From the IMG/VR virus record IMGVR_UViG_3300029887_000004: a stretch of DNA of 57,747 nt; one strand, given 5' to 3'. How positions within the stretch are numbered: the first letter of the stretch is position 1; the number at the start of each line of letters is the position of its first letter. Shown here one piece after another: positions 4,898-36,257 of this stretch. The notes beneath the pieces were generated by a model, which made no database searches, had not been told where the DNA came from, and saw nothing but the letters and a program-made list of their open reading frames with translations. This DNA comes from a virus (taxonomy: Duplodnaviria > Heunggongvirae > Uroviricota > Caudoviricetes). The position numbers and the translations under genes are program-made.

Positions 4898-4930
4898 ATT
4901 ATACCACAATTGTTATATAAATCCAACATT
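4898..4930 (-). promoter_or_regulatory. Sigma70-type promoter, copy 1
   Basis: Minus strand TTGGAT-17nt-TATAAT with extended TG; 30/33 identical to 5749-5781. Confidence 0.7.
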
Positions 4931-4948
4931 TCTAGAGGTGAATATAAA

Positions 4949-5149
4949 ATGTACGATAGTATTTTAATTGATTATGGGCTTGAAAAATTCCACAAATATG
5001 TTATGGCAAATTCAATCATAGATTATCCATTTCCGCAGACTGACTATCCTTCCATATATACTGATCCATCTACTCTTACTGAAGAGCAGCGTATATTGCA
5101 GGAGAAAATGAAATGTCTTGTGGAACAATTGAAGATAGACAAGGAGTAA
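4949..5149 (+). CDS. Small hypothetical protein
   Basis: GAGGTG SD then ATG at 4949; converges on the gene ending at 5152. Confidence 0.55.
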   Translation: MYDSILIDYGLEKFHKYVMANSIIDYPFPQTDYPSIYTDPSTLTEEQRILQEKMKCLVEQLKIDKE

Positions 5150-5151
5150 TC

Positions 5152-5715
5152 CTAAAAATTATTCCCACAATTTTTACAATGCCACTGCTTCCCTACCTTA
5201 TCAGATGCAATTCCAAACATGCTGGTAGAAAGCATACGCTTAAACATGCCAATCTTCTCGATATTTGTGGATTGGCATACTGGACAGTGAGGTTGATTAG
5301 TGGATGGTGGATTTTGATAGTTGTTCTTTTCTCTATATTGTTTTAACCGCTCTTCTTCTTCATGACGTCTTTTGTTATATGCATTCTCATTAAATTGATC
5401 TTCCACATTAAGATCTTTTAGGTCATTAAGAATGCTTTCTTTGTCACACCCGTGATGATTTAACAAATCTACCATTTCATATTTAGTTTGTATAAATGGA
5501 ACGCGACAATATTTACAGTTCACTCTTCTACAATGACCAGCATAATTAATTTCATGAACCCCACATCTCGGACAGATAAAACCTCTAGTAAAATCATTAA
5601 TATTATTTTCTTCTAGATATTTTTTGATTGGTCGTCCACAATGAGGACAAGTTTCAGCATAGATACTAACTTCTCTATCACAATCTGGGCAATATATCAA
5701 ATTTTGAAATCCCAT
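5152..5715 (-). CDS. Multi-zinc-ribbon protein, paralog of 2114-2701
   Basis: Same CxxC layout and shared STNQPHCP motif; GGAGG SD before ATG at 5715. Confidence 0.75.
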   Translation of the reverse strand: MGFQNLIYCPDCDREVSIYAETCPHCGRPIKKYLEENNINDFTRGFICPRCGVHEINYAGHCRRVNCKYCRVPFIQTKYEMVDLLNHHGCDKESILNDLKDLNVEDQFNENAYNKRRHEEEERLKQYREKNNYQNPPSTNQPHCPVCQSTNIEKIGMFKRMLSTSMFGIASDKVGKQWHCKNCGNNF

Positions 5716-5748
5716 ATTACATCCTCCAATACACATTAAATTGATTAC

Positions 5749-8700: not shown

Positions 8701-11663
8701 GAAATCACAGATGATATTGACAAGGTTAAGGAATATATTCAGCAGATCAATGATGCTGATTTGGAGCCAGAAGTTCGGACAGAGAGACTGGAGCAAGCCA
8801 ATAATATTCTTGACTATCTGGTACAGAAACAGCAAGAAGCTGGACAAAATAACATTGTAATTGATGCGGATGCAAGTTCTGTCGATCAAAAGATTTCTGA
8901 TCTGAAGAGCCAATTGGAGCAGTTTAGAAACGAAGACGGTACGATTCCTGTTAATGCCGATACACAAGATGCTGTCAACAGTTTACAATCCCTGTACGCT
9001 ACGAAACAGAATCTTGAAAATACTCCTGCCATTCTACAGGTTGATACTTCACAGGTTGACGGAGAACTGGGCAATGCGATCGGAAAATTACAGGAATATC
9101 AGAATGCTGTAGAGATTCTGAACGCACAGAACACGATGAAAACACAGGGCATCGACATTGATACCACAGATGCACAGCAGAAAGTACAACAGTTGGCAGG
9201 ACAGCTACAGAATCTTGATGCTGATACGACAGCGAAGTTAGGTCTTGATGATACTGATTTTCAGTCGAAACTTTCTAATATTGCTACTCATCCGATTGAT
9301 GTAGGAATAGGGGTAAATCTTGATCCGAATGCTCTTGCCGACGTCTCTGCAAAGATTTCTGGAATTACGCCAGAATTACTTGTAAAAGCTGGTGTAAACG
9401 AAGAAGCGATTGTAAATTATACGCCGAAAGATAAGGACGCTACGGTCAAATACAAAGTTGACCATAGTGTGATTGACAGTTATGATCCGGAAGACAAAAA
9501 TGCTACGGTTACTTACGGTGTGGTTGTTTCCGGACTTGAAAATCTACCAGGAAATAAAACAAGAAGTCTGACTTACAATATTAAGACAAATGGTACTGTT
9601 CCAAGAGTAAATGGTACGGCACACGCTATAGGAACTGCTCATGCGGCAGGTACTGCAAGCCGTAATTGGGGGCTTGCTCACAATGAACCACATGCGCTTG
9701 TAAATGAATTGAAACCAGAAGCAATCGTTCGGGATGGTAAGGCGTTTATCTTGAATGGTGGCGATCCTACTTTTGCAAATCTGAAGAAAGATGATGTTGT
9801 ATTTAACGGTGATCAGACGGAGCAGTTGCTTGAACATGGTTATGTTACCGGCTCCCATGCACAACTTGCAGGTGGTGGTTATTCTTTAGGTAGTGCGTTT
9901 TCTGGCGGATCGGGAAGATTTAATGTTGGAAGTTCTGGAACAAAAGCAGATTCTTCCACATGGGAAGACAAAAAGAAACAGAATAATACCAGCCATAACT
10001 CATCTTCTGGTAGCAGTAGTAGTAGAAACAGTGGATCATCTTCTGGTGGTTCAACTCGATCCTCATCCGGTGGCTCTTCCGGAGGAAGTTCCGGCAGCTC
10101 TTCCACCAAAGAAGCAACCGAGGAAACCTTCGACTGGATAGAAGTATTTCTTAAGGAAATGTCTCGTGCTACTGAGATTGCAGTTGATAACATTGATCGT
10201 GCTATCGGTCTGGCACAGAAGCAGACAAAAGCATATGACGCTATCAGTAAAGTTCAGCAGGAATTAACTGCAAATCAGCAGTCAGCCAACAAGTATTTAC
10301 AGCTTGCGGCGAACGTGGGGCTTGATCCTTCTTATATCTCTAAAATCCAGAATGGCACACTTGATGTGGAAAAAGTAACCAACGAGGATCTGAAGAAAAA
10401 GATTGACGAGTATAAGGACTACTACAGTAAATATGAATCCGCTGCTGATAACGTAGCCAAACTCGAAGATAAAATTACCGAACTCGCTGAGAAACGTCTG
10501 GAAATTATTGAAAAAGAATATGATGCGATTGTAGACATCAATGATAAAATCAAAGACGTAGCCGATTCCAAAATATCCTTGAATGATGCACTTGGCGTAG
10601 CCATCGACAATCCAGACAACTATGCAAGCATAAATAAATCCATCAAGGCACAGGAAGATACTTACAATCAGCTGACGAAAAAGCTTTCCGATTATCAGAA
10701 AGAAGTAGATTCACAGCTTTCCAGTGGTTATCTTAAGAAAGGTTCCGAAGCTTATCAATCTGCTATGAAAAATATTCAAGATTTCACAGCTAAGATTTAC
10801 GATGCTTCTACCAGCCTTCTTGAACTACGGGATAAATTGGATCAGATTAAAATTGATACCATCCAAAATGTAATTGACGGAATCAAACGTAATTCGGATA
10901 TTACGGAGAAATATATTTCTTACCTGCAATCCCAGAATCGTGATGTGCCAGAGAATCTATACACTGACCGTATAGATAATAATAACGCTCAAGTACAGCA
11001 GAATCTAAAGCAGATGGAAATATACCGGAAGAAACAGGCGGTTCTTGATGTCAATTCTAAATCGTATCAAGATTATGCAGAAAAGATTCAAACGCTAAAA
11101 GAAAATACTCTGGAACTGATTACGGACAATGAATCTCTTCAAGATAGTATCTATGAGCTACGTTTTAAGCCACTTGACGATGCTATCCAGAAGTACAGTG
11201 ATCTTGAAGATGAGCTAAAAAGTTTCCGCGACCTTCTGAACGATGATGCATTCCTTGATAAGCAAGGACGTATCACTGAAGAGGGATTGGCACAAGTTGC
11301 TCTCTTACAGCAGAGTATTGGTACGGCAAAACAAAAAATTGCAGATTATACCACGGGTCTGCAAAAACTAAAAGAGTCTTATGACAATGGTGTTATTTCC
11401 TTAACGGAATATAATGACAAGTCAAAAGATTACCGTGAAGGTATTCAAGGTTCGATTGCAGATGTGAAATCATATCAGGACAGTCTGGTTGATCTGTATA
11501 AGAACGCTATGAGTACAGAGGTTGATTATCTTGATAAAATAATCAGCAAGAGAAAAGAAGCCCTGACACAGCAGAAGGATATGTACGACTATTCTAAGAA
11601 GATTAATTCTCAGAATAATAACATAAATAGCCTTAAAGCCCAAATCATGGCTTTAGAAGGGGT
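5797..11663 (+). CDS. Phage tape measure protein, exon upstream of the group I intron (start uncertain)
   Basis: ~1950-aa helical Ala/Gln/Glu/Lys-rich ORF upstream of Dit/Tal-like genes; hydrophobic segment near the N-terminus; no SD at the TTG. Confidence 0.8.
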
Positions 11664-12140
11664 GAAATATTTGCTCCTGTAAAATCTATTTAATTGCGGG
11701 AAGTCCCCATAAGGTTTAATTGGCTACAACGTAACCGGAAACGGTAGGCGTGAATGCGGTAGAGTTATAAACTCACAGTCCATTATTGGATAGAAACCAT
11801 AAAAATAATTAAACTAGGGATAACCGGGTGTGCAAGTCACTCAGACGCAGCGAACTTCCTAAGTCAGAAATGATATGGAAGACGTTCAGAGACTAACCCA
11901 TATTGGGTGGCGCAATGCCTTAATGTAAGACCGCAAGCGATTGGCGGTTTGAAAAATATAGACTATTTGAATATTAAGTGATATTATAAATTTGAGGCGT
12001 TCTGTTTTATGTCTACTGATGAACAGGCAGAACACAGTGCGCATACAGATAAAGAATAGAATGGCATCTAACAACAAAAATTTGAACACATTTATTAAAA
12101 TTTACAGACAATAAAGTGGTATTTTTGTTGATACTGCGAA

Positions 12141-12169
12141 TAGATTTTTCCTTTAGAATTGCATATAAT
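12141..12169 (+). promoter_or_regulatory. Putative intron-internal sigma70 promoter
   Basis: TAGATT-17nt-TATAAT. Confidence 0.5.
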
Positions 12170-12175
12170 AAATAT

Positions 12176-12385
12176 AAGAAAGGGGAACCTTTCTCAATAA
12201 ATCTGGTGTGATGCAGCGAAATGCGACTGCTAGAAATACAACCGTAGAAGCACATACCGGGCTAGGAACTGGTGTGTGTGGAGGTTTACAAAGGTAAGGG
12301 GTTTACCATAGCCTAGCTAGGTGAAAACCGAAAGAAAATCCCACAATGAAGTAAGAGAGTTAGCACCAGTGACTCTCTTATTTTT
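12176..12385 (+). ncRNA. Candidate structured RNA with pseudoknot, ending in an intrinsic terminator
   Basis: Stem 12250-12279 whose loop GCUAGG is complementary to CCUAGC (12312-17); GGU-GAAA-ACC hairpin; terminator UAAGAGAGUUA/UGACUCUCUUA plus U-tract (12352-12385). Confidence 0.6.
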
Positions 12386-12402
12386 ATGCACAAGGAGATA
12401 AA

Positions 12403-13002
12403 ATGGATGCAATATCAACAGCGTTGACATCTTTTAAAGATTTATCTTTATATGAATATAAATTTAGAATTGCGTATAAAAAACAATTATATGATCTTGA
12501 ACTGAATTTTGACAATGAAGATTTTTATCATTGCGCCGGATTGCAGTATTTAAAAGACATAGATATTCCCAAAAACGCTTCAAAGTTGTTTCGTGAAATT
12601 GTAAACGGCAAAATTACAGACGACTATTTGGAGAAAAGTAAGAAGTACCCATTTCCAAAACCAGGAATAGATGTCCAAAAAAGAATTTTGCACCTAGGTG
12701 TTTTAAGAAAATATATAGAAGCAGATAACGCAATTTGGAAATACGTGAAAGAGCAGAATGTCGGAAGTCAGATAAATGCTGATTATATGATAGTTTCTAC
12801 AGTTGATAATGTGGAAGCATACATATTTCTAAGAAAAAGATCGTCTGACCCAAACGATTTAAAATACTGTATCTGCTCATTTTTTGTTAATCCGATCAGA
12901 ACATATAATGGAGCAAAAGCATATTGGTTTTATAAATCAAAAGTCAATTTAGAAACAAATGAAGAACAAATATATTATCAGAAACAACCACAGGAGCAGT
13001 AA
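12403..13002 (+). CDS. PBECR4-like (BECR-fold) putative RNase, intron-encoded
   Basis: LxF...FYHCAGLQY motif and C-terminal SFF strand recalled as typical of PBECR4; AAGGAG SD; no GIY-YIG, HNH or LAGLIDADG motif. Confidence 0.65.
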   Translation: MDAISTALTSFKDLSLYEYKFRIAYKKQLYDLELNFDNEDFYHCAGLQYLKDIDIPKNASKLFREIVNGKITDDYLEKSKKYPFPKPGIDVQKRILHLGVLRKYIEADNAIWKYVKEQNVGSQINADYMIVSTVDNVEAYIFLRKRSSDPNDLKYCICSFFVNPIRTYNGAKAYWFYKSKVNLETNEEQIYYQKQPQEQ

Positions 13003-13020
13003 ACCTACTGCTCTTTTCTT
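12992..13020 (+). terminator. Terminator after the intron ORF
   Basis: GAGCAGT-AAACCT-ACTGCTC followed by TTTTCTT. Confidence 0.6.
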
Positions 13021-13146
13021 ATACCTCAAATCTTAATTACAATCCCTCAAATAAAATTCAAATAGAAGATATAGTCCCATGCCATACGAAAGTATGGAGA
13101 GCAGTTATGCTCTTGTCCACGTAGCGAGTGGATGAAAAGAAAAATG

Positions 13147-14638
13147 AAATAATCTCGATGCTCAATCTCAAGTTAAGAAATTGAAGCAGCAGCTCAAAGA
13201 AGCGCAAGAAGATCTCGATGATACGAAACGTGACCATTCAAACGATATGCAGTCTCAAGGTTACGATAAGCTCAGTGAAGATCTGAAAACTTCTCTTGAC
13301 AACACCGAGTATGAAATCAGTCATAATGCCGACAAACAGCTTGAGATCATCAATTCTATGCTTGACAAAGCCGTGTCCTCTTACCAAGAAGCATACGGTA
13401 AAATCAATTCTATCATCAAAAATACTGGCTGGGTAGGTAGTACGGATTTTAATACTGCTCAGTCTGATCTAAACACAGAGACAGGTGTTAAGAATCAAAA
13501 TTCCAACGCATCACAGTCTCAATCCAGTGCAAATAAAAATCCATCCAGTACCGCATCTGGTACAAAAACTGATCCAATCAACAGTAATTCAAAAGCAAAC
13601 AGTGATCTTGCGGATCAATTAGTCAAACCGGAAGATACAACGAATCGTAAGGTTGCGGAACTAAAGGTGTCTCCTACTTCTACGACACTGGAAGAGGGTA
13701 AATCCACAAGTATTACTGCTACAATCAGACCGAACGATGCAGCTAATAAGACTCTTGCTTGGAAATCAAGTAATGAATCAATTGCTACTGTATCCAATGG
13801 TACGGTAAAAGCAAAGAAACCTGGCTCTTGTACGATTACTGCTACCACTACCGATGGAAGTGGACTGTCTGCAAAGGTATCAATTAAGGTCAATGCAAAA
13901 CCAAAACCACCAAAGCCACAGCCGAAACCACAACCAGCAAAAACTGGTGGAGATGGAATTCCTCGTGTTGGCGATGTCGTAACGTTTACAGGATCTTACT
14001 ACAATGACTCTTGGGGTATGTCTCCAAAAGGTAGTAGATTTTCCGGTCAGCCTGGTGCTGTTGTTATTGATTCTTATACAGCTAGGGAATATGGTGGAAA
14101 TGGACGTACTACTGGTGATTTTAAGATCCATATCAAAAGTGCGCATGATCCTAATTATAGTGATCTTGGATGGGTACGTCTCAGTCAGATTAGTGGTTAT
14201 GAAAAGGGTACGGATCGTATTCATGGCGATCAACTTGTATGGACAAACGAAAATAAAGACACCAAACATCATGGCGTTTCAGAATTAATCTATCGCAAGA
14301 AAGATGGTGCTGTCCTTACACCTGTTCAAGATGGAGATTCTATTCTACCAGCCGATTTCGTTAGTAATTTAGCTGCATTAAGTGCAATTGATCCACGGGA
14401 ATTCGGTATGAATGTAAGTATTACGCCAAATCTGGTGCAGACGAATATTCCTCAGAACATCAGCAATGTCGGAAATGTAACGGTAACAAATCATTATGAT
14501 TCATTACTCACAGTTGAAGGTAATGTTGACAGGGATGCTCTGCCTGGATTGCAGAAAATACTGGAAAAATCATATACGTATACAACGAAAAAATTGGCTG
14601 ACGAATACGGAAGACTTGGACACAAGATAATTATGTAA
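13147..14638 (+). CDS. Tape measure protein, 3' exon (contains a Big_2 Ig-like domain)
   Basis: In frame with the upstream exon after splicing; PNDAANKTLAWKSSNESIATVSNGTVKAKKPG Ig-like motif; ends in a TMP-type C-terminus. Confidence 0.85.
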
Positions 14639-14645
14639 TTTTTAT

Positions 14646-14680
14646 GGGAGAGTACTGTCAAAGGTACTCTCCTATTTCTA
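14646..14680 (+). terminator. Terminator-like hairpin after the TMP gene
   Basis: GGAGAGTAC-N8-GTACTCTCC followed by TATTT. Confidence 0.55.
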
Positions 14681-14713
14681 TAACTATAACAAATTTTTTG
14701 GAGGTGATGCAAA

Positions 14714-15802
14714 ATGGCAAAAGAATTTAAAAATTTTACGTTCATGGGACAACGATTAAGTGATTTAAGTGTGAAATATGTATCCGTGGATTTTGAAGGT
14801 GGATCAGATGTAAATATGGCAATGGAGAGGGATATGGAGACAGGTGATTCTAATCGTTATAAGGTAGAACCAAATTATTTTTATGACAAATGGAATGACA
14901 CTTTAGAATTTGAGTTAGATATTATCAAAGACCCATGCACATATTTAAACCAAAGTGATTCTATTATCACAAAGTCTGAGCGTCGAGAAATTACCAAATG
15001 GCTCACTTCTTCTCATTTTCCAGAATGGCTGACATTTTCTGGAACTGATGATTCTGCGGATGATACAATTCGTTATTTTGGATGGTTTAATAATATTGAA
15101 TCGTATTCTGTAAATTCTCAAACCTTTGGATTAAAATTATATTTTAAATGCACAACCCCGTTTGGTTATACTGACGATATTACAACAAACGTATCATGTT
15201 CAACATATAAAAATATTCTAATCGCAAATAATAGTGATGAATTAAATAGTTATGTATATCCAACGATTGATATTTTTCCAAAAGCAAATGGGGATATTGT
15301 AATTTGTAATATGTCTGATTGTACGATTCGCGAAACAGGAACACTATCTTCCTCTAATACAAATTATATGGGACAATTAATTTCTTATGTTGAATTATAT
15401 GCAAAATCAAATGCATGTACTGCACAATTTGACATTTCAGAAGAAACCAAAGATATTAATTGGAGATGCGATAATACATTGACTCAATTTAAATTAATTG
15501 ATGCATATGGAAATGAAACAGCATGTACGGTTTTTTATAGAACAGATTCAAAAGTATATTATATCATCGAAAATGGCATTATGGTTTTGTCTGTTTCAAA
15601 AGATTTAAATATATCTATGGATTGCCAGAAGTTAACAATTAATGATGAGCTTGGACGGATGGTAAGATATGATAAATTAGGCATCAATGATGTCGCTCAT
15701 ATGTATTGGATACAATTAGTTCATGGGAATAATTCCTTTTTATTCTATGGTAATTGTGATTTTCGCATAAAACATATTGAGGCACGAAAGGTTGGTGAAT
15801 AA
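14714..15802 (+). CDS. Distal tail (Dit)-like protein
   Basis: Directly after TMP; N-terminal FTFMG, KWLT, FKCTTPFGY and YPTI motifs; GGAGG SD. Confidence 0.7.
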   Translation: MAKEFKNFTFMGQRLSDLSVKYVSVDFEGGSDVNMAMERDMETGDSNRYKVEPNYFYDKWNDTLEFELDIIKDPCTYLNQSDSIITKSERREITKWLTSSHFPEWLTFSGTDDSADDTIRYFGWFNNIESYSVNSQTFGLKLYFKCTTPFGYTDDITTNVSCSTYKNILIANNSDELNSYVYPTIDIFPKANGDIVICNMSDCTIRETGTLSSSNTNYMGQLISYVELYAKSNACTAQFDISEETKDINWRCDNTLTQFKLIDAYGNETACTVFYRTDSKVYYIIENGIMVLSVSKDLNISMDCQKLTINDELGRMVRYDKLGINDVAHMYWIQLVHGNNSFLFYGNCDFRIKHIEARKVGE

Positions 15803-24738: not shown

Positions 24739-27255
24739 ATGGATGAAAACTTTATCTTAAACGAAAATTACACAGTGTCTCCAATGAGCGACCAACATTC
24801 AACAGCTACAATTTCAGAGAAGGTTGTAGATGTGTCAAACATTGGTACATTCGTTATGGGAGAACACAATTCTTCTATGATCACTTTCCAGATTGATCGA
24901 TATTATGATGGTGTCGATCTGTCTGATAAGAAAATTAAAATTGTATATAAAAATAGCAATGGTATTTATAAATCAGATGACGCAGAAATTTGCAATGTGA
25001 AATATTCTCAAAAGTCTCTACGTTTTTCATGGGTCGTTTCAAATAATGTAACACAAACAACTAAATTCATTGCTTATATTTGTTTTATTTCGGAAGATTA
25101 TTTACTGAAAACAGAGAATTTTACTGTCCAAGTCAAATCATCTTTTGATCCCAGTACAAGTGAACCTTCTGCTAATTGGTTTGTAACAATTGAAGGCAAG
25201 CTTGAGAAAATCGAAAAAGATATTGCAAATAATCATGTATATGATTGGGCGAAACAACCTGAGAAACCAACTTATACTCCTGAAGAGATTGGTGCAGAAA
25301 AAGCTGGTACATCCGATGGAATTTTCAGAAGTGCTATGAAGTATACGGACGGAGAAATCTCAAGACTGGAAGATACGGTTATTCCTGACAATGTAGCAAC
25401 ATTAGAACAAAAAATTACAGACCTTAATCAGTCCGTAGTTAATTTACAAGATGCTAAAGCAAAAAAAGTGCATACTCATCTTGTCGCAGATATTACAGAC
25501 TTTCCAACAAGCCTTCCAGCAAGTGATGTGCATGATTGGGCAAAAGCAGAAACAAAACCGACCTATACACACGATGAAGTTGGCGCACTTTCCTCTTCTA
25601 CTCATATTCCGTCTACATTAGAAGAAATGACGGATGATCAAAATCATCGAACCGTGTCTGATACTGAGAAAGAAACATGGAATAACAAAAGTGAATTCTC
25701 AGGTGAATATTCCGATCTAAAAAATATCCCAGAAATTAAACAATTAACAGATGAATTAAAAGCAAAATATGATGCGGCATCTGATATTGCTGCCAAGAAT
25801 AAATCTGATATTACTACAAAATTAAATAAATCTGGATACACTGCTCATCAATGGTTGCAAACAGATGAAAATGGAAATATCGTCGCAGGTGAGAAACCTA
25901 CATATACACCTTCGGAGGTATCTGCTCTTCCAGACACAACACATATTCCATCAACACTAGCAGAAATGATAGAGGATGACAAACATAAAATAATCACATC
26001 TGCTGAACGTGAAAAATGGAATGCAAAAAGTGATTTCTCTGGTAGCTATAACGATTTAACAGATGTTCCAGAAATCAAACAACTCACTGATGATCTAAAA
26101 GAAAAATTAGATGATTTTGAAGGCGTTATTTTACCTTTAAAATACATCAATATATTTAATAAAGAAAATATTGTAAAAGGCAAAATATATAACCCATATG
26201 TAAACGCAAAAGATACAGAGTTTCAAATCGTAGAAAATGGTTTTTACTCTACTGACAAATATTTCTGTAAACAAGGTGATGTAATATATTATTCAGCTGC
26301 ATATATCTATCTGTTAATATACGACAAAAACGGAAATTGTGTCGAAGTATTTAATCCGACAACAACGGGTTCTGTAATAGTATCTAATAGTAATGCCGAA
26401 TATTTCAGATACACATGTTCAGCGTCCGATAAAACTTATGTGGATAGATTTGCGTTATCAATAAACAAGGCCCTACCCGATATATATATACCTTATGGGG
26501 TAACATGGGAGCAATATAACAACAACAAAAACTTTTATATGCCAAAAGTCATTGTTAGTGTTGATTATAGTTTTTCTGAAATTACAAATCCTCATATCAC
26601 ATATGGACTTGAGAATGGAATAAGATTTGTTTTTAATGGTCAATCAGAAAATGCAAGAACGCTGTTAAAAAAAGGATGTGATTTAGGAACATACTCTAAT
26701 GACAGCGATTATTTACCGGATTTTTCGACGATAAACAATGAAAATGATAAGGACTTAAAGGCATGGGATGATTATGTTAAACACGCGCTATCATTGCAAG
26801 AAAACAAGGGATTTGTTCGACCAGTATTGTGGGAATGTTTCCAATTACGATATGGCACGGCTTTAGAAAAAGCCTTAAAAAACAATGGGTATATTTATGC
26901 CAGAGGTAAACAATCCGGTAATGGTTTCTACCCGGTAAAAAATGTTAATTATCAACAATTTGATTGTATTGCCCCAACAGATACGACGCTAGACAATGTA
27001 AAAACTGTAATAAATAATTGCTGCAAAGAATCAAAGACACTTTGTATTCTTTTTCATAGAGTGTTAGATAATGTTCCTAGCGAAGATACATGGGATATTT
27101 CAACCGAATATTATAAACAAATAATAGATTACATTTTAGAGTTTATAAATGCTGGAAAAATCATAAATGTGACTCCGAACGAGTTGTACAATTTGTCGAA
27201 TCCAATCAATGCACATATTCGAGACAATGTAAAGTTAATAAATTTAATTAACTAA
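24739..27255 (+). CDS. BppU-like baseplate/fibre protein with internal repeats and a C-terminal polysaccharide-deacetylase-like domain
   Basis: ITFQIDRYYDGVDLS N-terminus; KPTYT repeats; C-terminal GYIYARG, CILFHRV, VTPNE. Confidence 0.6.
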   Translation: MDENFILNENYTVSPMSDQHSTATISEKVVDVSNIGTFVMGEHNSSMITFQIDRYYDGVDLSDKKIKIVYKNSNGIYKSDDAEICNVKYSQKSLRFSWVVSNNVTQTTKFIAYICFISEDYLLKTENFTVQVKSSFDPSTSEPSANWFVTIEGKLEKIEKDIANNHVYDWAKQPEKPTYTPEEIGAEKAGTSDGIFRSAMKYTDGEISRLEDTVIPDNVATLEQKITDLNQSVVNLQDAKAKKVHTHLVADITDFPTSLPASDVHDWAKAETKPTYTHDEVGALSSSTHIPSTLEEMTDDQNHRTVSDTEKETWNNKSEFSGEYSDLKNIPEIKQLTDELKAKYDAASDIAAKNKSDITTKLNKSGYTAHQWLQTDENGNIVAGEKPTYTPSEVSALPDTTHIPSTLAEMIEDDKHKIITSAEREKWNAKSDFSGSYNDLTDVPEIKQLTDDLKEKLDDFEGVILPLKYINIFNKENIVKGKIYNPYVNAKDTEFQIVENGFYSTDKYFCKQGDVIYYSAAYIYLLIYDKNGNCVEVFNPTTTGSVIVSNSNAEYFRYTCSASDKTYVDRFALSINKALPDIYIPYGVTWEQYNNNKNFYMPKVIVSVDYSFSEITNPHITYGLENGIRFVFNGQSENARTLLKKGCDLGTYSNDSDYLPDFSTINNENDKDLKAWDDYVKHALSLQENKGFVRPVLWECFQLRYGTALEKALKNNGYIYARGKQSGNGFYPVKNVNYQQFDCIAPTDTTLDNVKTVINNCCKESKTLCILFHRVLDNVPSEDTWDISTEYYKQIIDYILEFINAGKIINVTPNELYNLSNPINAHIRDNVKLINLIN

Positions 27256-27913: not shown

Positions 27914-29671
27914 ATGACAGAAAAAGAATTCGTTGAAAAAATAGGTAAGCTTGCCGCCGAAGATATGAAGACAAGTGGAATTTTAGCATCAGTTACTACT
28001 GCCCAGGCTTGCTTGGAATCTGGATACGGAACAACCGAATTGGCAAAAAATGCGAATAATTTATTCGGCATGAAAACAACACTATCAAATAATACATGGG
28101 CATCCGTATGGGATGGAAAAGGCAAATATACCAAAAAGACAAACGAACAGACCAAAGACGGAAAAGTATATGTGATTACGGCTGATTTTAGGAAATATGC
28201 AAATATTTTAATGAGTATTAAAGATCATTCCTGCTATCTCAACGGAGCAATGAATGGAAAGTTGAAAAGATATGCAGGACTATCTGGTTGCACGGATTAT
28301 AAAACTGCAGCGCAGATCATCAAAAATGGCGGATATGCAACAGATGTTAAATATGTAGATAAAATTTGTAGTTTGATCGAACGATGGGATTTAACTCGTT
28401 TTGATAATTTTGGAAAGGAGAATGATAATATGAATATTATAGATGTTACAAGCGCAAGTAAATCATACGTTCCACAGTGGGGAAACAAGAAACAGTATAT
28501 TGTCGTTCACTATCTTGGCGTAGCAGGACAGAATAATAAAATTAATTCAGATGGATGTGGTGCGCATTACTATATTTATTGGGATGGTACGATTTATAAA
28601 GCAGCAGACCATAATGCTATCCTTTGGCAAGTAGGCACTGCAGGATACTATACTCAAAAACATCCATATGCAAGAAATAGTAACTGTATCGGAATCGAGA
28701 TGTGTCCTAAGTGTGATGGATCTGGAAAATATGCAGAAGATCCAACATGGTATTTTACAGAAGCAACGCAAAATGCTTGTGTGCAATTAGTAAAATATTT
28801 GATGGGACAACTTGGCGTAGGTGCAGATCATGTACTGAGACATTATGATGTTGTAAACAAATATTGTCCTGCGCCATATGTTACTAATAATAAGTATAAA
28901 ACTTCTTGGACTTGGAATGAGTTTAAAGCAAAACTTGGAGCAACTTATACTCCTCCAGTTGTACAGTCTCAGCCAACATCAACAAAGACTTACAAGACCG
29001 GTATGTATAAGGTAAATTGTGATCTTCATATCAGATCGGATGCTACTGTTAATTCAAAAGTTGTCAACACTATTCGAGATCGTGGCACATACACAGTAAC
29101 TGAAATTAAGAATAACTGCTGGGGAAAACTAAAATCCGGAGCCGGTTGGATCAATGTTTCGGATGAATATTGTACGTATGTTGGTGTAGTAGCCACTGCA
29201 AGTAAACCAGTGTCTAAACCAACCGCAAAGCCAGCTACGCCCGTATACAAAGCAGGAAAATATAAAGTTAATTGCGATGATTTAACAATTAGAAGCGATG
29301 CATCCAGCAAGGCAAGTGCAACTGGAAGTATTCGTGACAAAGGAACTTATAATATCACTGAAATCAAAAATACATATTGGGGAAAACTAAAATCCGGAGC
29401 TGGCTGGATTTGCATTGACAAAGATTTTTGTACTTATGTCGGTGTTTTGGATAAGCACATCACTGTTGTAAATAAAGAATTTCAAATTGCAGTTAGAGAA
29501 AATGGTATCAGAGTTCGTGCTTCTGCTGGTCTAAGCGCTAGAATTGCCATTGGTTCTTGCCCTATTGGAACATATACTATCACAGAAACAAAAACTGCTG
29601 ATGGATATACATGGGGTAAATTGAAATCTGGTGCAGGATGGATAGCAATTGAATGCTGTGTTAGATTATAA
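27914..29671 (+). CDS. Endolysin: GH73 glucosaminidase + Amidase_2 + three SH3-like repeats
   Basis: AQACLESGYG, NNLFGMK, GYATD; YIVVHY, AHYYI, IGIEMC, RHYDV...CP; WGKLKSGAGWI three times. Confidence 0.9.
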   Translation: MTEKEFVEKIGKLAAEDMKTSGILASVTTAQACLESGYGTTELAKNANNLFGMKTTLSNNTWASVWDGKGKYTKKTNEQTKDGKVYVITADFRKYANILMSIKDHSCYLNGAMNGKLKRYAGLSGCTDYKTAAQIIKNGGYATDVKYVDKICSLIERWDLTRFDNFGKENDNMNIIDVTSASKSYVPQWGNKKQYIVVHYLGVAGQNNKINSDGCGAHYYIYWDGTIYKAADHNAILWQVGTAGYYTQKHPYARNSNCIGIEMCPKCDGSGKYAEDPTWYFTEATQNACVQLVKYLMGQLGVGADHVLRHYDVVNKYCPAPYVTNNKYKTSWTWNEFKAKLGATYTPPVVQSQPTSTKTYKTGMYKVNCDLHIRSDATVNSKVVNTIRDRGTYTVTEIKNNCWGKLKSGAGWINVSDEYCTYVGVVATASKPVSKPTAKPATPVYKAGKYKVNCDDLTIRSDASSKASATGSIRDKGTYNITEIKNTYWGKLKSGAGWICIDKDFCTYVGVLDKHITVVNKEFQIAVRENGIRVRASAGLSARIAIGSCPIGTYTITETKTADGYTWGKLKSGAGWIAIECCVRL

Positions 29672-29813
29672 TAAATACACGCGCGAAATAAGAAAAGCCA
29701 CCTTCATCAGGCAGCCAGAAAAGAAATTTTTCTTTTTTCACCATCATATGAAACAACCGTTTCATCAGTGCAAAAATAGTATATCATATAAGATAAAATG
29801 ATGCAATAATTTT

Positions 29814-29852
29814 ATGGGGAATATCAATTAATTTTGGTATTCCCCATTTTTT
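29814..29852. terminator. Bidirectional-type terminator between endolysin and tniQ
   Basis: ATGGGGAATA...TATTCCCCAT followed by a T-tract. Confidence 0.65.
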
Positions 29853-31336
29853 TACGCTTTTTTATTATTTTTTTGTATTTTTAGGTACGTTTCAGGATAT
29901 CTGTATTGTAGTATATCCATAGCTTTTATCATATTTTTTTCTATTATGTGTACCATACCCTTTAATTCGCTATATGAAATATAATCGCTGTCAATTTGAT
30001 CGACAATATATTTTATTTTATCGACCCAATAATCCTCTATTGGTTTTTCTTTTGTTTTAATATACTTATAGCATTGTGGCATATAATAAAAATCATTTCT
30101 TCTGATGTCTTGACAAATTTGTTGCATGAAAGCATTAAATCCTCCTACAGTTAATCTTCTAACTTTGCCAGAATTCTTAAAATATAAGTCAATATAATAT
30201 TCAATTTTAGGATAATACTTTTTATCCAATTCAGAATACCTCTTTCCTTTAGGCGATATATTCCTACTGCTACTATGTGCATAATTTTGGCTTATTAATT
30301 TTTGTTTTTCAACTTCATATTGACCGTTAATTATTTTACTTACATTACAAGGTAAAATATGATATTGTTTCGCAAGCTTGTTTATGCCGTTATCTTTTGT
30401 ATACTCTGATCGAATTCTTTCGATTAATTCCGAATCAATTTGTTTCGCCGTTTTACATACAAAAATATCAGATATTTGTATATCTAAAAATAATAATATA
30501 TGAATTGTTCTAAGTGGATTCGCTTTATTTAAGAATATACTACTCATTGCTTTTATTTGACAAGTTTCCTTTATGTTATTGTCAGATAAATATTGTTTAA
30601 AATTATCTAAAAATACCGACTTGTGTTGGAGCCATGAAAGCTGATTGATATATTTCTTTTGAACTAACTTCCTGTAAAATACGTCAAACATCGTAATACC
30701 GTTCTTAAGACTCTGTTTTCTTACTACTAATTGATATAGGTATTTTGCAGCCTTGATTTCACCGATGGTTCCCATATCATATGAATAATCATCATTAATG
30801 CAATTTTCAGCCGTTAGAAAATTTATTATTCTTGAATTGTTAACATGAACCGATGAATCTTTGAGTTTACATCCATGAATTACACAAACATTAATTTCTG
30901 GAATTTGATGAAAAGCATTCCAATATGTTTCGTGATATTGCTCTCGATTTTCTTTTGTACATAATGGACAATATTTTAGAAATATTTTTTGATGTTTATG
31001 TTTTGGTCTTGGGGAAAGGTATTCTAAAAAACTTTTGTCATTTGATATGAGCTTTCTCAACGCATTTTCTTTATCCGATTCGTTTAGAAATACAGACCAG
31101 TAAAAAAGCATAGTATGGTTATAGTATAAGTCATTAATAATATAATTTTTCGATATAAAAGAACGTAGTACATCACTTGGTTCGTTTATATAAAATATTT
31201 CGATGTATTCATTCGGTCGTTTAAACACGATTTCTTTAAAAGATTGATTACTCTGTACATTTATATCTTGTTTCAATCTTGAATATATGCTATAAAACAA
31301 TTCATAGTCATATATTTTAGGAAAATAATTTAACAT
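29852..31336 (-). CDS. tniQ: Tn7-like target selector TniQ/TnsD
   Basis: FPKIYDYELFYSIYSR N-terminus; YCPLC...HQIPEINVCVIHGC Zn motif; 494 aa (TnsD-sized). Confidence 0.85.
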   Translation of the reverse strand: MLNYFPKIYDYELFYSIYSRLKQDINVQSNQSFKEIVFKRPNEYIEIFYINEPSDVLRSFISKNYIINDLYYNHTMLFYWSVFLNESDKENALRKLISNDKSFLEYLSPRPKHKHQKIFLKYCPLCTKENREQYHETYWNAFHQIPEINVCVIHGCKLKDSSVHVNNSRIINFLTAENCINDDYSYDMGTIGEIKAAKYLYQLVVRKQSLKNGITMFDVFYRKLVQKKYINQLSWLQHKSVFLDNFKQYLSDNNIKETCQIKAMSSIFLNKANPLRTIHILLFLDIQISDIFVCKTAKQIDSELIERIRSEYTKDNGINKLAKQYHILPCNVSKIINGQYEVEKQKLISQNYAHSSSRNISPKGKRYSELDKKYYPKIEYYIDLYFKNSGKVRRLTVGGFNAFMQQICQDIRRNDFYYMPQCYKYIKTKEKPIEDYWVDKIKYIVDQIDSDYISYSELKGMVHIIEKNMIKAMDILQYRYPETYLKIQKNNKKA

Positions 31337-32538
31337 ATTTCCACCTCTTCAACAGTAAAAGTATTTTTAATAAGAGTTAAGAGATCATAGTTATTAGATT
31401 GTGAATAATTGTATAAGTCAGCAATATTAACACTATCCGAATGATGAATTGTTATTTCTTTATGTGGTTTATTGACTGTTTGACTATTTTTCTTTTGCAC
31501 TTTTTCTACTTGCATAGACATCATCCCATTGTATGACGCATTAAAAATATCAATACTTAATTTCTCTGTGTTGCTCATAATGGCTAATTCCTGTGCTCTA
31601 TAAAATAACGATACAACAGTTGACGTCACTCCGTTTGAATGAGTATACAACCAATTTATGATTTTTTCTGATGGTTCTGTGTATTGTTGCACATATTGAA
31701 ATTTTAATAGATTTTTGCAAAAATGTATAAAATCATCATCATAATCATTTTGTAAATATCGCAAGCCTATTGTCCTTCGTTCCAGATGTGGTGCGCTTTC
31801 AAACCAATGTAGACATTCTGGTGTTCCAACCATACATACACTAATTCCACTACTATTTATAATCTGTGTTAACGCCCCAATAAGTTTATCACCGTTTTTA
31901 TTATTAACTACGTTTTGAATCTCATCAACAATAAGTACCCCAACATGATTTAAACATATTTGGCTAACAAAACCGATTAGTCTATCCGTAGTATACCGTT
32001 GTGCTATCTGTAAATAATCTCCATCCAATGTAGCATCAAGAATACGAACGATTTCTAACAATAGACTTTTTACAGAAGAGTCAAATGGGCATTGCACAAG
32101 TATAAAAGGAGCAATTCGTTGATATGGGTCTGTTGTTTCGATAAAATGATTTCCGAAAATCAATGAGATCGCTCTGGTAATAGCACTACTCTTCCCTATG
32201 CCAGAAACTCCAATGATTGTAAACGAATCAGCACCACCTATAATACCATTATACGTTTGTATGGTGTTTGTTGTATTTTCGATTCTTTGCTGTTTTACCA
32301 TCATATCATTTTCTTTTTTCTTAATCGACCTGAGTAATGCCATATACAATTTATTATATACATCAACAGATAATTGTGATGGAATATAAATATCATATAA
32401 TTCTGATAACGCCAGAAGACGAGTTGGCATTGTTTCATTGGCAATGTTTATATTATAGTTTGGTAATATCTTCAGTCGTTCTACTAATTCGTTTTCACAT
32501 AAAAAATCAGGCAATTGTGAAAGTAATTTACCGTTCAT
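31330..32538 (-). CDS. tnsC: Tn7-like AAA+ ATPase TnsC
   Basis: Walker A GVSGIGKS, CPFDSS, Walker B LIVDEIQ, VGTPE. Confidence 0.88.
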   Translation of the reverse strand: MNGKLLSQLPDFLCENELVERLKILPNYNINIANETMPTRLLALSELYDIYIPSQLSVDVYNKLYMALLRSIKKKENDMMVKQQRIENTTNTIQTYNGIIGGADSFTIIGVSGIGKSSAITRAISLIFGNHFIETTDPYQRIAPFILVQCPFDSSVKSLLLEIVRILDATLDGDYLQIAQRYTTDRLIGFVSQICLNHVGVLIVDEIQNVVNNKNGDKLIGALTQIINSSGISVCMVGTPECLHWFESAPHLERRTIGLRYLQNDYDDDFIHFCKNLLKFQYVQQYTEPSEKIINWLYTHSNGVTSTVVSLFYRAQELAIMSNTEKLSIDIFNASYNGMMSMQVEKVQKKNSQTVNKPHKEITIHHSDSVNIADLYNYSQSNNYDLLTLIKNTFTVEEVEIC

Positions 32539-34268
32539 CTTTTAACTCCTCCCCTAGCAATCAACTCGATCTCATTCATCAAATCAATTTTCGCCTGTCT
32601 TGCATTATTTTGTTCGGAACGTAGTGTTGTTTTGCTCTGTTCTTTGATCTGTTCCACTTCATCCAATTTTCTATTCTTATATCTGCTTTCAACCAATACG
32701 AACGGCATGAAATCGCCCTTCTCTACTGTCCATACTACAGATACATCATCTGGATCGTAAGCAACCTTAACATCTCCACCTTGCAGGAATCTTTCGGCGC
32801 AATCATCCCGTTTATACCGCATCCCATTTACCACTAGACCACGCCTAGTAAATGTCCCAATGGTACGTGGGAGCAGATATAGGATTATTTTCGCGGTGTC
32901 ATGCGGGAATGAAATTAAATTTGCGCCTGGTTGCCGTCTTCCCCATTCCCATATACTGGCTGCATATGGCTTTACTCCATCATGAATCATAGATTGTGTG
33001 TAAGGGAATCGTTCTATGAGCCGTTGACTGTTATAGTAAATGATACAGCGTAAGATGATCTTCTCAAAATCAAACATCGTCAAGCAAGCATCTAGTCTGT
33101 AATCTCTTGCACCTCGTTCCTGGAAGTCCGGATCAATCACACCTTTGCCCTTGAGAAGTGGTTTATACATGGATTGGATGATGTCAAAGAATTTCTCTAC
33201 AGCACCTTTCAGCTCTGGTCTGTATGGTGGAAGATTTACCATGGTCACGCCTGTTTCTGTAATCTGTGCAAAGGATTCTGATGTGTATTCCCGTCCCATA
33301 TCAGTTACAAAGATGCCAGGTAACTCTTGCACGTTCCACTGGGATTTGTCTAGTGGGATACCAAACTTTCTACACCATTCTGTTTTGTCGGTAAGTATAT
33401 TTTGGAGCAGATGGCATAAACTCTTTGTATCGTTATTCCATGAGAGAACATAGCCATAACACATACTACTGTAAGCATCAATGCAAGTGGTTAGGATCGG
33501 ACGACCTTTTAAGGTACCAGTTTCGTCAATAAGGTAGATATCACATACGGTGGAATCAAACATACCAGTGCCGATATTGGTTGCAAACTCACGGATACCA
33601 TCTCCTAGCAAGGGACGATTGTTACGCTGGTAATTTGACAGTCCATCTCTGGAAATAAAATAAGTTTGGAGCTTCTTAGTCTTCCGGTAAAAGTATCGGA
33701 ACTGATAAAAGGATGGATGGTCGGATAGTAACTGTCCCATGCTGTCACAATACTTTTCTTTTAACATCATCTCATATGCTGTAACAAGACTGTTTTGTCT
33801 GCGTGTATAGAAGAACTTATTCAATGCCCATCTCATGTTCTTCTCATCTTTGGTCAGTACCTTTTCTTTCGTATGAACTTTTGGTGCAAGTACAGTGATG
33901 GTCTGAAAGATTAGATATTGATACAGATAGCGGCGGATAGTCTGCTTACTAATGTTATGCTCTTCTGAGATGGAAGAGATGATGTTTGCAGTTGCTGTGC
34001 TTTCTCCTAAGTGGTATAGGATCGGTGCAATCAGTGTGTACCGCTCATGTGCAATGCGCATCTGATCGGATGTAAGCTCCTGTTCGGCTGGTGGGGCGAT
34101 GTTGAGTGCATCATATAATTGCTTTTCTGGCAATGGGGTATATTGCGTTCTGAGCGTCCAGAATGGCATTTTCGGATGGAGACAGTCAATTACAAGGGTC
34201 TGGTTATCTGATGTCTTTAAAATTCTGTAGAACGTGTTATTGATATAGGCTATATCAGCTTTCTGCAT
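32535..34268 (-). CDS. tnsB: Tn7-like DDE transposase TnsB
   Basis: FDST (D), GRP...IDAYS, VTDMGREY (D), PPYRPELKGAVE (E); Mu-like C-terminal YDPDD. Confidence 0.9.
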   Translation of the reverse strand: MQKADIAYINNTFYRILKTSDNQTLVIDCLHPKMPFWTLRTQYTPLPEKQLYDALNIAPPAEQELTSDQMRIAHERYTLIAPILYHLGESTATANIISSISEEHNISKQTIRRYLYQYLIFQTITVLAPKVHTKEKVLTKDEKNMRWALNKFFYTRRQNSLVTAYEMMLKEKYCDSMGQLLSDHPSFYQFRYFYRKTKKLQTYFISRDGLSNYQRNNRPLLGDGIREFATNIGTGMFDSTVCDIYLIDETGTLKGRPILTTCIDAYSSMCYGYVLSWNNDTKSLCHLLQNILTDKTEWCRKFGIPLDKSQWNVQELPGIFVTDMGREYTSESFAQITETGVTMVNLPPYRPELKGAVEKFFDIIQSMYKPLLKGKGVIDPDFQERGARDYRLDACLTMFDFEKIILRCIIYYNSQRLIERFPYTQSMIHDGVKPYAASIWEWGRRQPGANLISFPHDTAKIILYLLPRTIGTFTRRGLVVNGMRYKRDDCAERFLQGGDVKVAYDPDDVSVVWTVEKGDFMPFVLVESRYKNRKLDEVEQIKEQSKTTLRSEQNNARQAKIDLMNEIELIARGGVKR

Positions 34269-34599
34269 CTGTTACAATCCCCCAATCTTGAACGCTATGG
34301 GCAAGCCAGTAGGAACGCGATGTGTCCAGAAGTTTGATTGTAAGTGGCTTGGGCTTGGTCAGATGACTTCGTTCTACACACTCTCGGACATATTGTGTGC
34401 CATCCTGTCGGGTGATAAGGAAGTCTGTTGTGTAGTCTTCATCTTCGAGTGGCGCATTGCATTGGAAGGATTGGACAGATGGATCGGTTTGGAGCTTATC
34501 TGCATAAACAGATTGGATGGTGCTGTAGCATCGGCAGATCGTGTCACATTTGGAGAGAGACTTTTTCTCACAGCGTCCTTTGTAGTTTTTCTTGTACAT
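34255..34599 (-). CDS. tnsA: Short TnsA-like protein
   Basis: First gene of the operon; YTTDFL...VRECV, SRSYW...DWGIVT; 114 aa only; GGAGG SD. Confidence 0.7.
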   Translation of the reverse strand: MYKKNYKGRCEKKSLSKCDTICRCYSTIQSVYADKLQTDPSVQSFQCNAPLEDEDYTTDFLITRQDGTQYVRECVERSHLTKPKPLTIKLLDTSRSYWLAHSVQDWGIVTDAES

Positions 34600-34619
34600 A
34601 GTGTACCTCCTTTGATTTT

Positions 34620-34810
34620 ATGTGTCGAAAAAGTTACCCAAAAATGAATTATGTGTTTTTTAAAAAGTACCCAAAAATGCTTGTTTTTGGGCGTGTGTAA
34701 GAATAAGTACCCAAATCCTGTTGTTTTTGGGAAAATCTGGGAAAGCAAGAATCCAGTGTTTATGCGGGTTCCCAGACTTTTTGATATTTATCATTACACA
34801 TCCCCAAAAA
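34620..34810. repeat. Cluster of direct and inverted ACCCAAAAA-type repeats upstream of tnsA
   Basis: Three TGTGT..AAGT(T)ACCCAAA copies (34620, 34651, 34693); inverted pair 34684-34706/34788-34810; TCTGGGAA/TTCCCAGA. Confidence 0.7.
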
Positions 34811-34829
34811 TAGAGTAAAAAATATACTA

Positions 34830-35321
34830 TGTTTCAAGGCAACCTCCTTGAGCCTAAAAAGGGCAAAACTGTTGGTTCTGCCGCTGATATGACTATAGAA
34901 TATTTAATAGATATTTTGACATATATTTTCGTGTAAACTTTTCCGACTGGAAGGTTTGGTCTATGTTTGAAGAGGGCAGGTGAGAAATGGATATGAACGT
35001 ATGAAATCTGAATTTCATCTGCTTTTCATCGTAAAATTTCAATTGTCCTAATCACAAAAACCCAGTATTTAAGCCTTTTTATCTGTGCATGATTTACTAT
35101 TAACATAAAAAAGACCTCATAACCACATTTTCTATGGTTACAAGGTCTTCGTTTTGTGTTTTATGAACAATTCGGCTTGCGTCTGGACTGATGATCGGGA
35201 AAAGGGGCGGTTGGAAGCTGGTCGGTGATCTGTTAGCGAACGGCTAGAGGATCAGTGACTTTGCCCTTTTGAGGATCAACTGGATTGCCCTTTTGAGGAT
35301 CAACTGGATTGCCCTTTGACA
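34830..35321. mobile_element. 492-bp non-autonomous mini-element with TGT...ACA ends and tandem transposase-binding-like sites
   Basis: Left end TGTTTCAA-GGCAACCTCCTTGAGCCTA-AAAAG-GGCAAAAC; right end (reverse complement) TGTCAAAG-GGCAATCCAGTTGATCCTC-AAAAG with three sites at 24-bp period; no 5-bp target-site duplication. Confidence 0.75.
35107..35149 (-). terminator. Terminator-like hairpin inside the mini-element
   Basis: AAGACCT-TG-TAACCA...TGGTTA-TG-AGGTCTT followed by TTTT on the minus strand. Confidence 0.5.
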
Positions 35322-35343
35322 TAGAGAAAACCTTGTTGGGGAT

Positions 35344-35372
35344 ATTATAACTTCAGATTTTCTCCATGTCAA
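35344..35372 (-). promoter_or_regulatory. Perfect consensus sigma70 promoter firing into the mini-element
   Basis: TTGACA-17nt-TATAAT on the minus strand. Confidence 0.8.
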
Positions 35373-35990
35373 CTATCCTACTACTCTAACTTCTGCATAA
35401 TACATGCCAGAGTTAAGAGCTTCTGAATGGCTGTCAACATAAATATCAACGCATCCACTTGGTACTCCTCTGTCTTCTACTGTATAAATCTGCCCATTGA
35501 TTTCTACTTTAGTTCCAAAAGGTAAATCTGCCATGGCAACAGTTCTTCCTGATACTGGATACGCGCCAGATGCCGTTGGACTGCCAGTCCAAGAACCATT
35601 GCAGCTTGCGCATCCACAATAGTGAGTAATTCGATATGTACCGAGACTATATCCAGAATACGATGTTGCTACTGGTGATGACTCAATTGGTTGGGATTGC
35701 AGAATGGGTTCAGAAACTAGAGGTACATCAGAAAGATATTCGTTAGACATATAGAACATCTGATCATTAATTTTTACTTTTGCCCAGTTGTTATCTGTGA
35801 TTTCTAAAACCTCTACAGAAGATCCATATGGTAAAGCTCCGATTTTCTTTGTGTTGGTGGAATTTCCAACACGATAATTAAGACCGATGGTAGGTTCAAC
35901 ATATTTAGTCTCTGCATTAGCCAATGTTGGAGTGAGTAATACGGTTAGTAGAGTTACAGTAGTTGCTAGTTTTTTCTTAAAATTATTCAA
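35373..35990 (-). CDS. Secreted SH3b + 3D-domain cell-wall protein
   Basis: Signal peptide; LNYRVG SH3-like motif; ITHYC, TASG, VEDRG, VDIY 3D motifs; TTG start after AGGAGG. Confidence 0.85.
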   Translation of the reverse strand: MNNFKKKLATTVTLLTVLLTPTLANAETKYVEPTIGLNYRVGNSTNTKKIGALPYGSSVEVLEITDNNWAKVKINDQMFYMSNEYLSDVPLVSEPILQSQPIESSPVATSYSGYSLGTYRITHYCGCASCNGSWTGSPTASGAYPVSGRTVAMADLPFGTKVEINGQIYTVEDRGVPSGCVDIYVDSHSEALNSGMYYAEVRVVG

Positions 35991-35994
35991 TGGT

Positions 35995-36234
35995 TTAGAC
36001 CTCCTGACTTTCATATACTTGTACTTCTTTAGCAAGCTCTGCTGCCATTTCACCCTCATAAGAGAATGCTACTGGCTTATTCAAGGCAAGGCTAAAGATA
36101 CCCATAATGGATTTGGCGTCAACAACATATCTTCCAGATACAAGTGTTGCATCTCCAGGATATTTGCTGACAGTTACGACAAACGCTTTTACTTTATCAA
36201 CGTTGTCAAGAATGATTTGTTTTTGTAGTTTCAT
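35995..36234 (-). CDS. HPr-like protein lacking His15
   Basis: VDAKSIMGIFSL (Ser46 region); AAGGAG SD before MKLQK. Confidence 0.8.
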   Translation of the reverse strand: MKLQKQIILDNVDKVKAFVVTVSKYPGDATLVSGRYVVDAKSIMGIFSLALNKPVAFSYEGEMAAELAKEVQVYESQEV

Positions 36235-36257
36235 TGTTTTGTTCTCCTTTGCATAAT

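Follow-up and report, generated by a model that had tools for sequence, protein, structure and literature searches.

Tn7-like transposons have been defined by the presence of TnsB and TnsC together with TnsA and/or TniQ (PMC11406308). In the sections of PMC11406308 and bioRxiv 10.1101/2024.11.13.623437 that deal with TnsA, Tn7 with inactive TnsA is described as transposing replicatively (May and Craig, 1996, as cited there), and loss of cutting by TnsA as yielding cointegrates. Here, a tns operon is described in a stretch of 57,747 nucleotides (the window) from a virus of the Caudoviricetes (IMG/VR record IMGVR_UViG_3300029887_000004), in which a pair of transposon ends excludes the tns genes and encloses a mini-element of 492 bp. 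From the sequence alone it had been proposed that the phage domesticated this system as its integrase and inserts as a cointegrate. Comparative genomics supported this proposal by conserved synteny, host junctions at the TGT and ACA termini, a fixed site and a target duplication, and the module is likely a deliberate replicative cointegration system that integrates a temperate phage. The following features make up the module:

34830..35321, no strand: mini-element, the attP equivalent, defined by its end pair and host junctions; it is this unit that adjoins host DNA and becomes duplicated when integration takes place
34830..34880, plus strand: tnsA-proximal end, an 8-bp terminus and two 19-bp sites; abuts the downstream host flank when integrated
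35247..35321, minus strand: distal end, an 8-bp terminus and three 19-bp sites; abuts the 3' end of the target gene when integrated
34600..34829, minus strand: spacer that contains the ribosome-binding site of tnsA and several TTTTTGGG-type repeats, which are kept in other lineages
34255..34599, minus strand: short TnsA-like protein of 114 aa, predicted nuclease-impaired (Pfam Tn7_TnsA-like_N; alignment to Tn7 TnsA)
32535..34268, minus strand: tnsB, DDE transposase of 577 aa (Pfam rve and Mu-transpos_C; triad D238/D323/E358 intact)
31330..32538, minus strand: tnsC, AAA+ ATPase of 402 aa (Pfam AAA_22/TniB; Walker A at residue 110, Walker B at residue 202)
29852..31336, minus strand: tniQ, TnsD-like target selector of 494 aa (Pfam TniQ 5.6e-11; structure match to Tn7 TnsD 1.7e-8), associated with insertion at rlmH
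29814..29847, no strand: hairpin terminator between the convergent endolysin and tniQ genes

Neighbouring open reading frames (ORFs) of the four-gene minus-strand operon overlap by 14, 4 and 7 bp and carry the expected Pfam domains, which bears out the translational coupling of tnsA-B-C-tniQ that had been noted. All four genes are there, but tnsA encodes only an N-terminal-domain protein; the match of this protein to Tn7_TnsA-like_N (E 8.8e-5) is under the Pfam cut-off. The nearest solved structure to TnsB is prototypic Tn7 TnsB (E 1e-37), with the acidic triad aligned, and the best structural match of TniQ is Tn7 TnsD. By its TnsB triad, TnsC and TniQ/TnsD, the operon fits the definition of a Tn7-like system. 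TnsE is absent from the operon. Among the 30 of the 141 window ORFs scanned by Pfam, neither cas genes beside tns, which is flanked by the endolysin and an SH3 protein, nor any integrase family was found. The earlier statement that the window lacks an integrase thus holds for the scanned ORFs, but complete relatives hold 2-3 tyrosine recombinases outside the window. No close TnsB was found among cultured phages in INPHARED (4 matches, 21-22%), and the plasmid TnsB matches listed lie at about 25-31%.

The mini-element starts with TGT at 34830 and ends with ACA at 35321, and its 19-bp sites lie at 34838 and 34862 on the plus strand and at 35247, 35271 and 35295 on the minus strand, with a period of 24 bp. 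The end pair is the longest inverted repeat in 29400-35800 (53 nt, 72%), which confirms an inward-facing pair across 492 bp with the tns genes excluded. Since the loose 19-bp site pattern alone gave 9 matches versus 4.7 expected, a count that is insufficient by itself, the significance of the pair derives from clustering, termini and conservation in relatives. The 492 bp include one extra 24-bp tandem site copy; two distal sites are present in 11 of the 12 close relatives scored, whose mini-elements mostly measure 458-481 bp, and across the family the ends enclose 250-490 bp. Pattern matches at 3002-3043 were rejected as chance matches in coding sequence, and Rfam gave no significant match in 34500-35500.

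As stated in the sequence-only reading, tniQ runs into the terminator shared with the endolysin, and a true left end behind tniQ, which would have spoken against that reading, was not found: 29400-29900 holds no end-like TGT-N5-GGCA motif. An IS21 identity of the ends was likewise ruled out (NF033546, 19.3 bits versus a cut-off of 160; the mini-element has no long ORF). The layout therefore differs from that of canonical Tn7, in which tns genes and cargo lie between the ends, and from that of Mu, in which the ends are the genome ends, as the ends are internal in complete records of 200-217 kb, with one match each. In the window the sequences on either side of the mini-element, TACTA and TAGAG, do not form a duplication, and the window thus represents the unintegrated state.

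Relatives of this ∼210-kb phage were found as records of 200-222 kb. TnsB matched at 94-98% at 15 loci, where the operon lies between the nrdD/dUTPase early arm and the endolysin, except in L013, which has the same tnsAB, a different TnsC (45%) and TniQ (22%), and non-structural cargo. The genes that border this slot in the window are:

27914..29671, plus strand: endolysin, on the late-arm side of the integrase slot
35373..36059, minus strand: SH3-domain gene, the last gene of the early arm, which borders the right prophage junction

In a survey anchored on a neighbouring gene (best 80 of 150 matches), the Tns module occupied this slot in 11 of 11 close phages with at least 6 kb of downstream sequence, whereas a tyrosine integrase was present there in 28 of 28 equally covered sister phages, none of which had TnsB. 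Over all 60 sister loci, 45 have the tyrosine integrase and none has TnsB. Synteny behind the endolysin is thus conserved as predicted; relatives with a conventional integrase do exist, but carry it in place of the Tns module, which supports functional replacement. The operon was also identified in the same slot in five further phage lineages (L016, L019, L105, L117 and L118; TnsB 49-55%), four of which have the promoter followed by the TGT...ACA pair; in L105 the right flank of the pair is non-standard, and L117 appears degenerate. A quick TnsB tree with open deep nodes fits either one or several captures of the module by phages. The sister Lachnospiraceae phages presumably have an SP-beta-like layout, and in genomes that are otherwise syntenic their slot integrase can point either way (L375-L429).

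Insertion of the phage was studied at host junctions. A pattern covering both ends gave 105 metagenome stretches, and together with L156, 106 loci were examined. By the strict pattern both ends were present in 26 of the 106: 13 are unintegrated, 6 read promoter, mini-element, host, 3 read host, mini-element, tnsA, and 4 have host DNA on both sides, with a matching 5-mer in 3 and a mismatch in 1. Host junctions sit exactly at TGT and ACA. In L204, L214 and L234 the phage early arm (92%) is followed by the mini-element and host DNA, and in L206 rlmH is followed by the mini-element, tnsA-B and a phage-type TnsC. The same 5-mer occurs on both sides where rlmH, mini-element and host DNA adjoin (CGTGA in L246, GCGTG in L220), and CGTGA was also found on the left of L247 and the right of L204, which have a common assembly prefix. 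Insertion took place 33-36 nt behind the stop codon of rlmH, whose protein sequence is recorded from Fusicatenibacter saccharivorans. Because the left flank of L206 continues into the sequence that forms the right flank elsewhere, both flanks belong to one site. Elements of the L013 type are inserted 31-32 nt behind pflB with CCCGC duplicated (L219, L222; L192 and L272; L268 and L203), and on single contigs they read mini-element, cargo, mini-element, with the copies ∼27 kb (L192 and L272) or ∼41 kb (L268 and L203) apart. A second phage lineage, one of the five with TnsB at 49-55%, has a right junction to host DNA (L315). Several viral records start or end ∼55 nt inside the mini-element with inner flanks (L150 and L166; L113 and L303, one 123-kb record; L301 and L331), which is expected when an assembler meets two copies. 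Two things that had been predicted were thus found: a fixed host locus with a 5-bp duplication, and direct mini-element repeats that bound integrated elements.

The proximal end (window 34832-34850, minus strand) contains a strong ribosome-binding site and a TTG, whose reading frame matches that of the interrupted host gene downstream at the GCGTG register (L220) but not at CGTGA (L246). Remnants of truncated mini-elements, with the distal end and a further 190-380 bp or so (L176-L280), are common in gut metagenomes behind asd (27 loci) and proA (22 loci), which suggests further TniQ variants and old scars.

These junctions come from short-read metagenome assemblies that cross a repeat, and no single contig was found that spans a whole prophage with both host junctions. 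L246 has an assembly prefix in common with L210, a contig that reads mini-element, tns, so that its host, mini-element, host structure may be a collapsed repeat. Both points weigh against the integration reading. In a rival explanation, the junctions between phage and host would be chimeras that arose in assembly because the mobile mini-element is repeated; in its favour are the many contigs that stop 54-55 nt into the repeat and the joining of the asd flank to the rlmH-downstream flank in L254. This explanation is the least probable one: the insertion site tracks the type of TnsC (phage type at the rlmH junction L206, L013 type at the pflB junction L192), the position wobbles by 1-3 bp with matching duplications, the only host flank seen next to the early arm is that of rlmH (3 loci), and chromosomal contigs with two copies exist (G013).

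The complete Tns phages hold 2-3 tyrosine recombinases elsewhere (5 of 5 complete records searched), a further point against the module as integrase, and a serine recombinase is present in 2 of the 5; the operon might be a passenger or remnant in a phage that integrates by its own tyrosine recombinase. Phage-host junctions exactly at TGT/ACA largely refute this very improbable alternative, and within the slot Tns and integrase exclude each other. In addition, of two shared recombinases the one tested has a homologue in an integrase-bearing sister and is thus not the slot integrase. In some relatives a third tyrosine recombinase lies in the variable tail-fibre region (G003:C1 117348-118409, L281; G006, L282), where the window has 24739-27255.

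For integration by the module, a mechanism can be proposed in which TnsB would join the mini-element ends to a site behind rlmH chosen by TniQ/TnsC without second-strand cleavage; through replication the mini-element would then be doubled, with the entire phage enclosed by its two copies. TniQ probably recognizes its target within the 3' end of rlmH. From the junction positions we infer that TnsB binds the sites in the mini-element ends and catalyses joining, and the missing second-strand cut would follow from loss of cutting by TnsA. A deletion of ∼440 bp from the proximal end into tnsA in L200 is of the kind that replicative intramolecular transposition gives; L245 also joins the proximal end to mid-tnsA.

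The catalytic positions of Tn7 TnsA, which we take to be E63, D114, K132 and E149, were compared with the TnsA-like protein. In a weak alignment Q29, V75 and S94 stand at the positions of E63, K132 and E149, and D59 is retained; by these positions the intact nuclease residues of canonical cut-and-paste Tn7 are not present. Across 99 proteins of the family the four positions hold Q in 96, D in 98, V, I or L in 96 (K in 0) and S in 97; throughout the family, three of the four nuclease residues therefore appear to be missing from the TnsA-like protein. A search for longer TnsA forms, with 8000 candidates scored, gave 34 matches; judged by the domains listed for them, none is evidently a canonical TnsA with two domains, and the Atlas clusters for the TnsA-like protein are unnamed or only 13% TnsA.

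Copies of the mini-element within one element are identical or nearly so in three cases (L192/L272, 100%; G013, 0 of 305 mismatches; G010 copies B and C, 99.6%), whereas copies of different elements are mostly 87-96% identical. This bears on the main rival explanation, an unlikely two-step route in which the mini-element alone transposes to rlmH as a simple insert and the phage then enters by homologous recombination between copies. The route gives the same final structure including the 5-bp duplication, loci with host DNA on both sides of the mini-element exist (L219, L220, L222 and L246), and some copy pairs are only 92-97% identical. It does not agree with the identical pairs, with the predicted loss of TnsA cutting across the family, or with the conserved donor flanks and leader-terminator covariation that cross the junction, and a phage that had its mini-element cut out would be left with a broken genome.

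Replicative cointegration has further points against it. Pairs in the same element or genome can be unlike (L268/L203, 96.7%; G014, 96.4%; G012, 91.6%), two unrelated pairs reach 98-99%, the 5-bp duplication is absent in G012, G013, G014 and L254, and the operon has no linked resolvase. The missing duplications and the 92-97% pairs could be due to deletions at a later stage or to recombination between copies. The homology to TnsA is weak: the PDB alignment (E 0.62 with a 5-sequence profile) was lost with 47 sequences, and Pfam TnsA matched 11 of the 47. Since D59, R72 and E73 are near-invariant in the family, the active site is possibly changed rather than dead. Excision would most likely occur by recombination between the two copies, homologous or by a phage tyrosine recombinase, and leave one mini-element scar, which the loci with host DNA on both sides fit; it is the least supported step. 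Repeated TTTTTGGG and CCTTGA...TACTGG-like motifs, which occur inside the mini-element (35055-35085) and before tnsA (34600-34829) in several lineages, are possible protein-binding or resolution sites.

The following features at and inside the distal end are predicted to control the operon:

35344..35372, minus strand: sigma-A-type promoter with perfect consensus (12 of 12), aimed into the mini-element and tns operon when unintegrated
35322..35337, minus strand: transcript leader outside the distal end, with 11 bp complementary to the 5' arm of the terminator; predicted antiterminator
35110..35150, minus strand: intrinsic terminator within the mini-element, shared by all of the 12 elements examined

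The junction promoter and internal terminator also occur in distant elements, and the leader before TGT covaries with the 5' arm of the terminator, G-U pairs included. For 12 hand-picked, related elements, pairing of leaders with their own terminators averaged -10.9 kcal/mol versus -7.9 kcal/mol for cross-pairs, which none of 100000 permutations equalled. For 11 of the 12, at most 6 of 500 shuffles did as well as the leader; in L031, where the arm window was misplaced, 214 of 500 were as good. The helix of leader and terminator arm is predicted to form ahead of terminator completion. Against this, the full transcript at equilibrium folds into the terminator, and because the finished transcript favours it, antitermination is a kinetic prediction. 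The leader is thus predicted to be an antiterminator that works only in the circle: there, junction promoter and leader would turn tns on, and after integration the terminator in the left copy would stop read-through from the host.

The same anatomy was found outside phages and is common in chromosomes of Clostridia. GTDB gave 75 loci, among which the inward pair is again found ahead of a short tnsA; on the tnsA side the flank is conserved, with pyrimidine-pyrimidine-A in front of TGT, and the distal flank is variable. Of 34 loci picked for a clear distal end, 27 have it directly behind ppdK (15) or guaA (12), one of each being named by Pfam and the rest by a shared C-terminal motif. In G013 a 45.6-kb island reads guaA, mini-element, tns, restriction and chaperone cargo, promoter, mini-element, host, and contains one XerD-like gene. 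When 401 genomes from a single family were searched with a junction pattern, 5 matches resulted, of which 2 were real, and TnsB was found with neither. The inside-out anatomy is therefore not phage-specific; it belongs to a family that extends across Clostridia and flanks non-phage islands as well. The sequence-only reading of a system domesticated by the phage accordingly stands for the integrase role and falls short in that the anatomy is more widespread and other tyrosine recombinases exist.

The elements probably represent a new class of system for site-specific integration, an 'inside-out' Tn7 family of Clostridia, in which a non-coding mini-transposon serves as attP and, owing to a mini-TnsA with altered nuclease, the cointegrate is the intended product. 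Swappable TnsC/TniQ would pick rlmH, pflB, ppdK or guaA, any circle from 10-kb islands to 220-kb phages would be inserted whole, a circle-junction antiterminator would shut the machinery off once integrated, and several large gut-phage lineages would use it in place of an integrase.

Further observations were made in these genomes. In G010:C19 68000-109100, one scaffold holds four mini-element copies and two ppdK-linked tns starts, and two 99.6% copies with ATTTC in common bound 25.8 kb of host-like DNA, possibly a rearrangement driven by mini-element copies. The pflB-type elements L305 and L156 have genes for tape measure and tail that match window 5797-15802 at 94-96% identity, and a gene in L013 (7022-7609) is 96% identical to window 2114-2701; pflB-type islands may be decayed or hybrid prophages. 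In window 88-5736, minus-strand zinc-ribbon moron-like genes stand in a row ahead of the tape-measure gene. A small ORF at window 35995-36240 presumably resembles HPr.

If the interpretation is correct, it adds a lysogeny route beside tyrosine/serine integrases and Mu-type transposition, in which the cointegrate, normally an unwanted by-product of Tn7 and CRISPR-associated transposons (CAST), becomes the product. A transpososome pairing ends just 0.3-0.5 kb apart would place ∼200 kb of cargo site-specifically, which makes the system directly relevant to the integration of large payloads in gut Clostridia. Programs that find prophages by their integrases will overlook the att sites in such phages. 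The interpretation raises questions about the role of the retained mini-TnsA, the excision route of the prophage and the junction RNA switch. Neither a Tn7-like module that serves as phage integrase nor the inside-out anatomy was found in the open literature searched; the supplements of Faure 2023 and bioRxiv 10.1101/2024.11.13.623437, outside that search, may list such elements, and a term search of the main text of Faure 2023 (PMC10293859) gave no mention of rlmH, guaA or Firmicutes. Within this literature the arrangement and its use as an integration system appear new, while the proteins themselves are Tn7-like and the parts known.

With prototypic Tn7 the system shares the closest TnsB and TniQ (TnsB and TnsD), the 8-bp TGT terminus with repeated sites, a fixed site and orientation behind a conserved gene, and the 5-bp duplication. 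Unlike Tn7, genes and cargo lie outside the ends, the 114-aa TnsA lacks the C-terminal domain, the operon has no TnsE, and the product is mini-element, body, mini-element. Mu has ends that are its genome ends, inserts at near-random targets and replicates by transposition. Like Mu and other transposable phages, this phage uses a DDE transposase and an AAA+ ATPase (PMC11406308, in its treatment of these phages), but its end pair is internal and it carries replication genes of its own. As described in part of bioRxiv 10.1101/2024.11.13.623437, the Streptomyces telomeric Tn7-like transposons also keep a natural TnsA with an altered active site and transpose replicatively; those elements are one-ended and self-resolving at telomeres, whereas here two linked ends are present and the cointegrate would be formed and kept. 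The Tn5053 family and type V-K CAST likewise use TnsB, TnsC and TniQ replicatively with a cointegrate intermediate, but, in the account given in PMC11406308, they have no TnsA, carry their genes inside the ends and have the cointegrate resolved by a recombinase or the host. The pseudo-compound transposons and translocatable units of IS26 and IS1216 also have one copy in the circle and two direct copies when integrated (PMC11102541, PMC13055272); in contrast, as far as these sources describe them, they depend on a single IS6-family transposase inside the insertion sequence, have no TnsC/TniQ site selection and are not phages. With the sister Lachnospiraceae phages, finally, the slot between the nucleotide-metabolism early arm and the lysis genes is the same, but here tnsABCQ and the mini-element replace integrase and attP.

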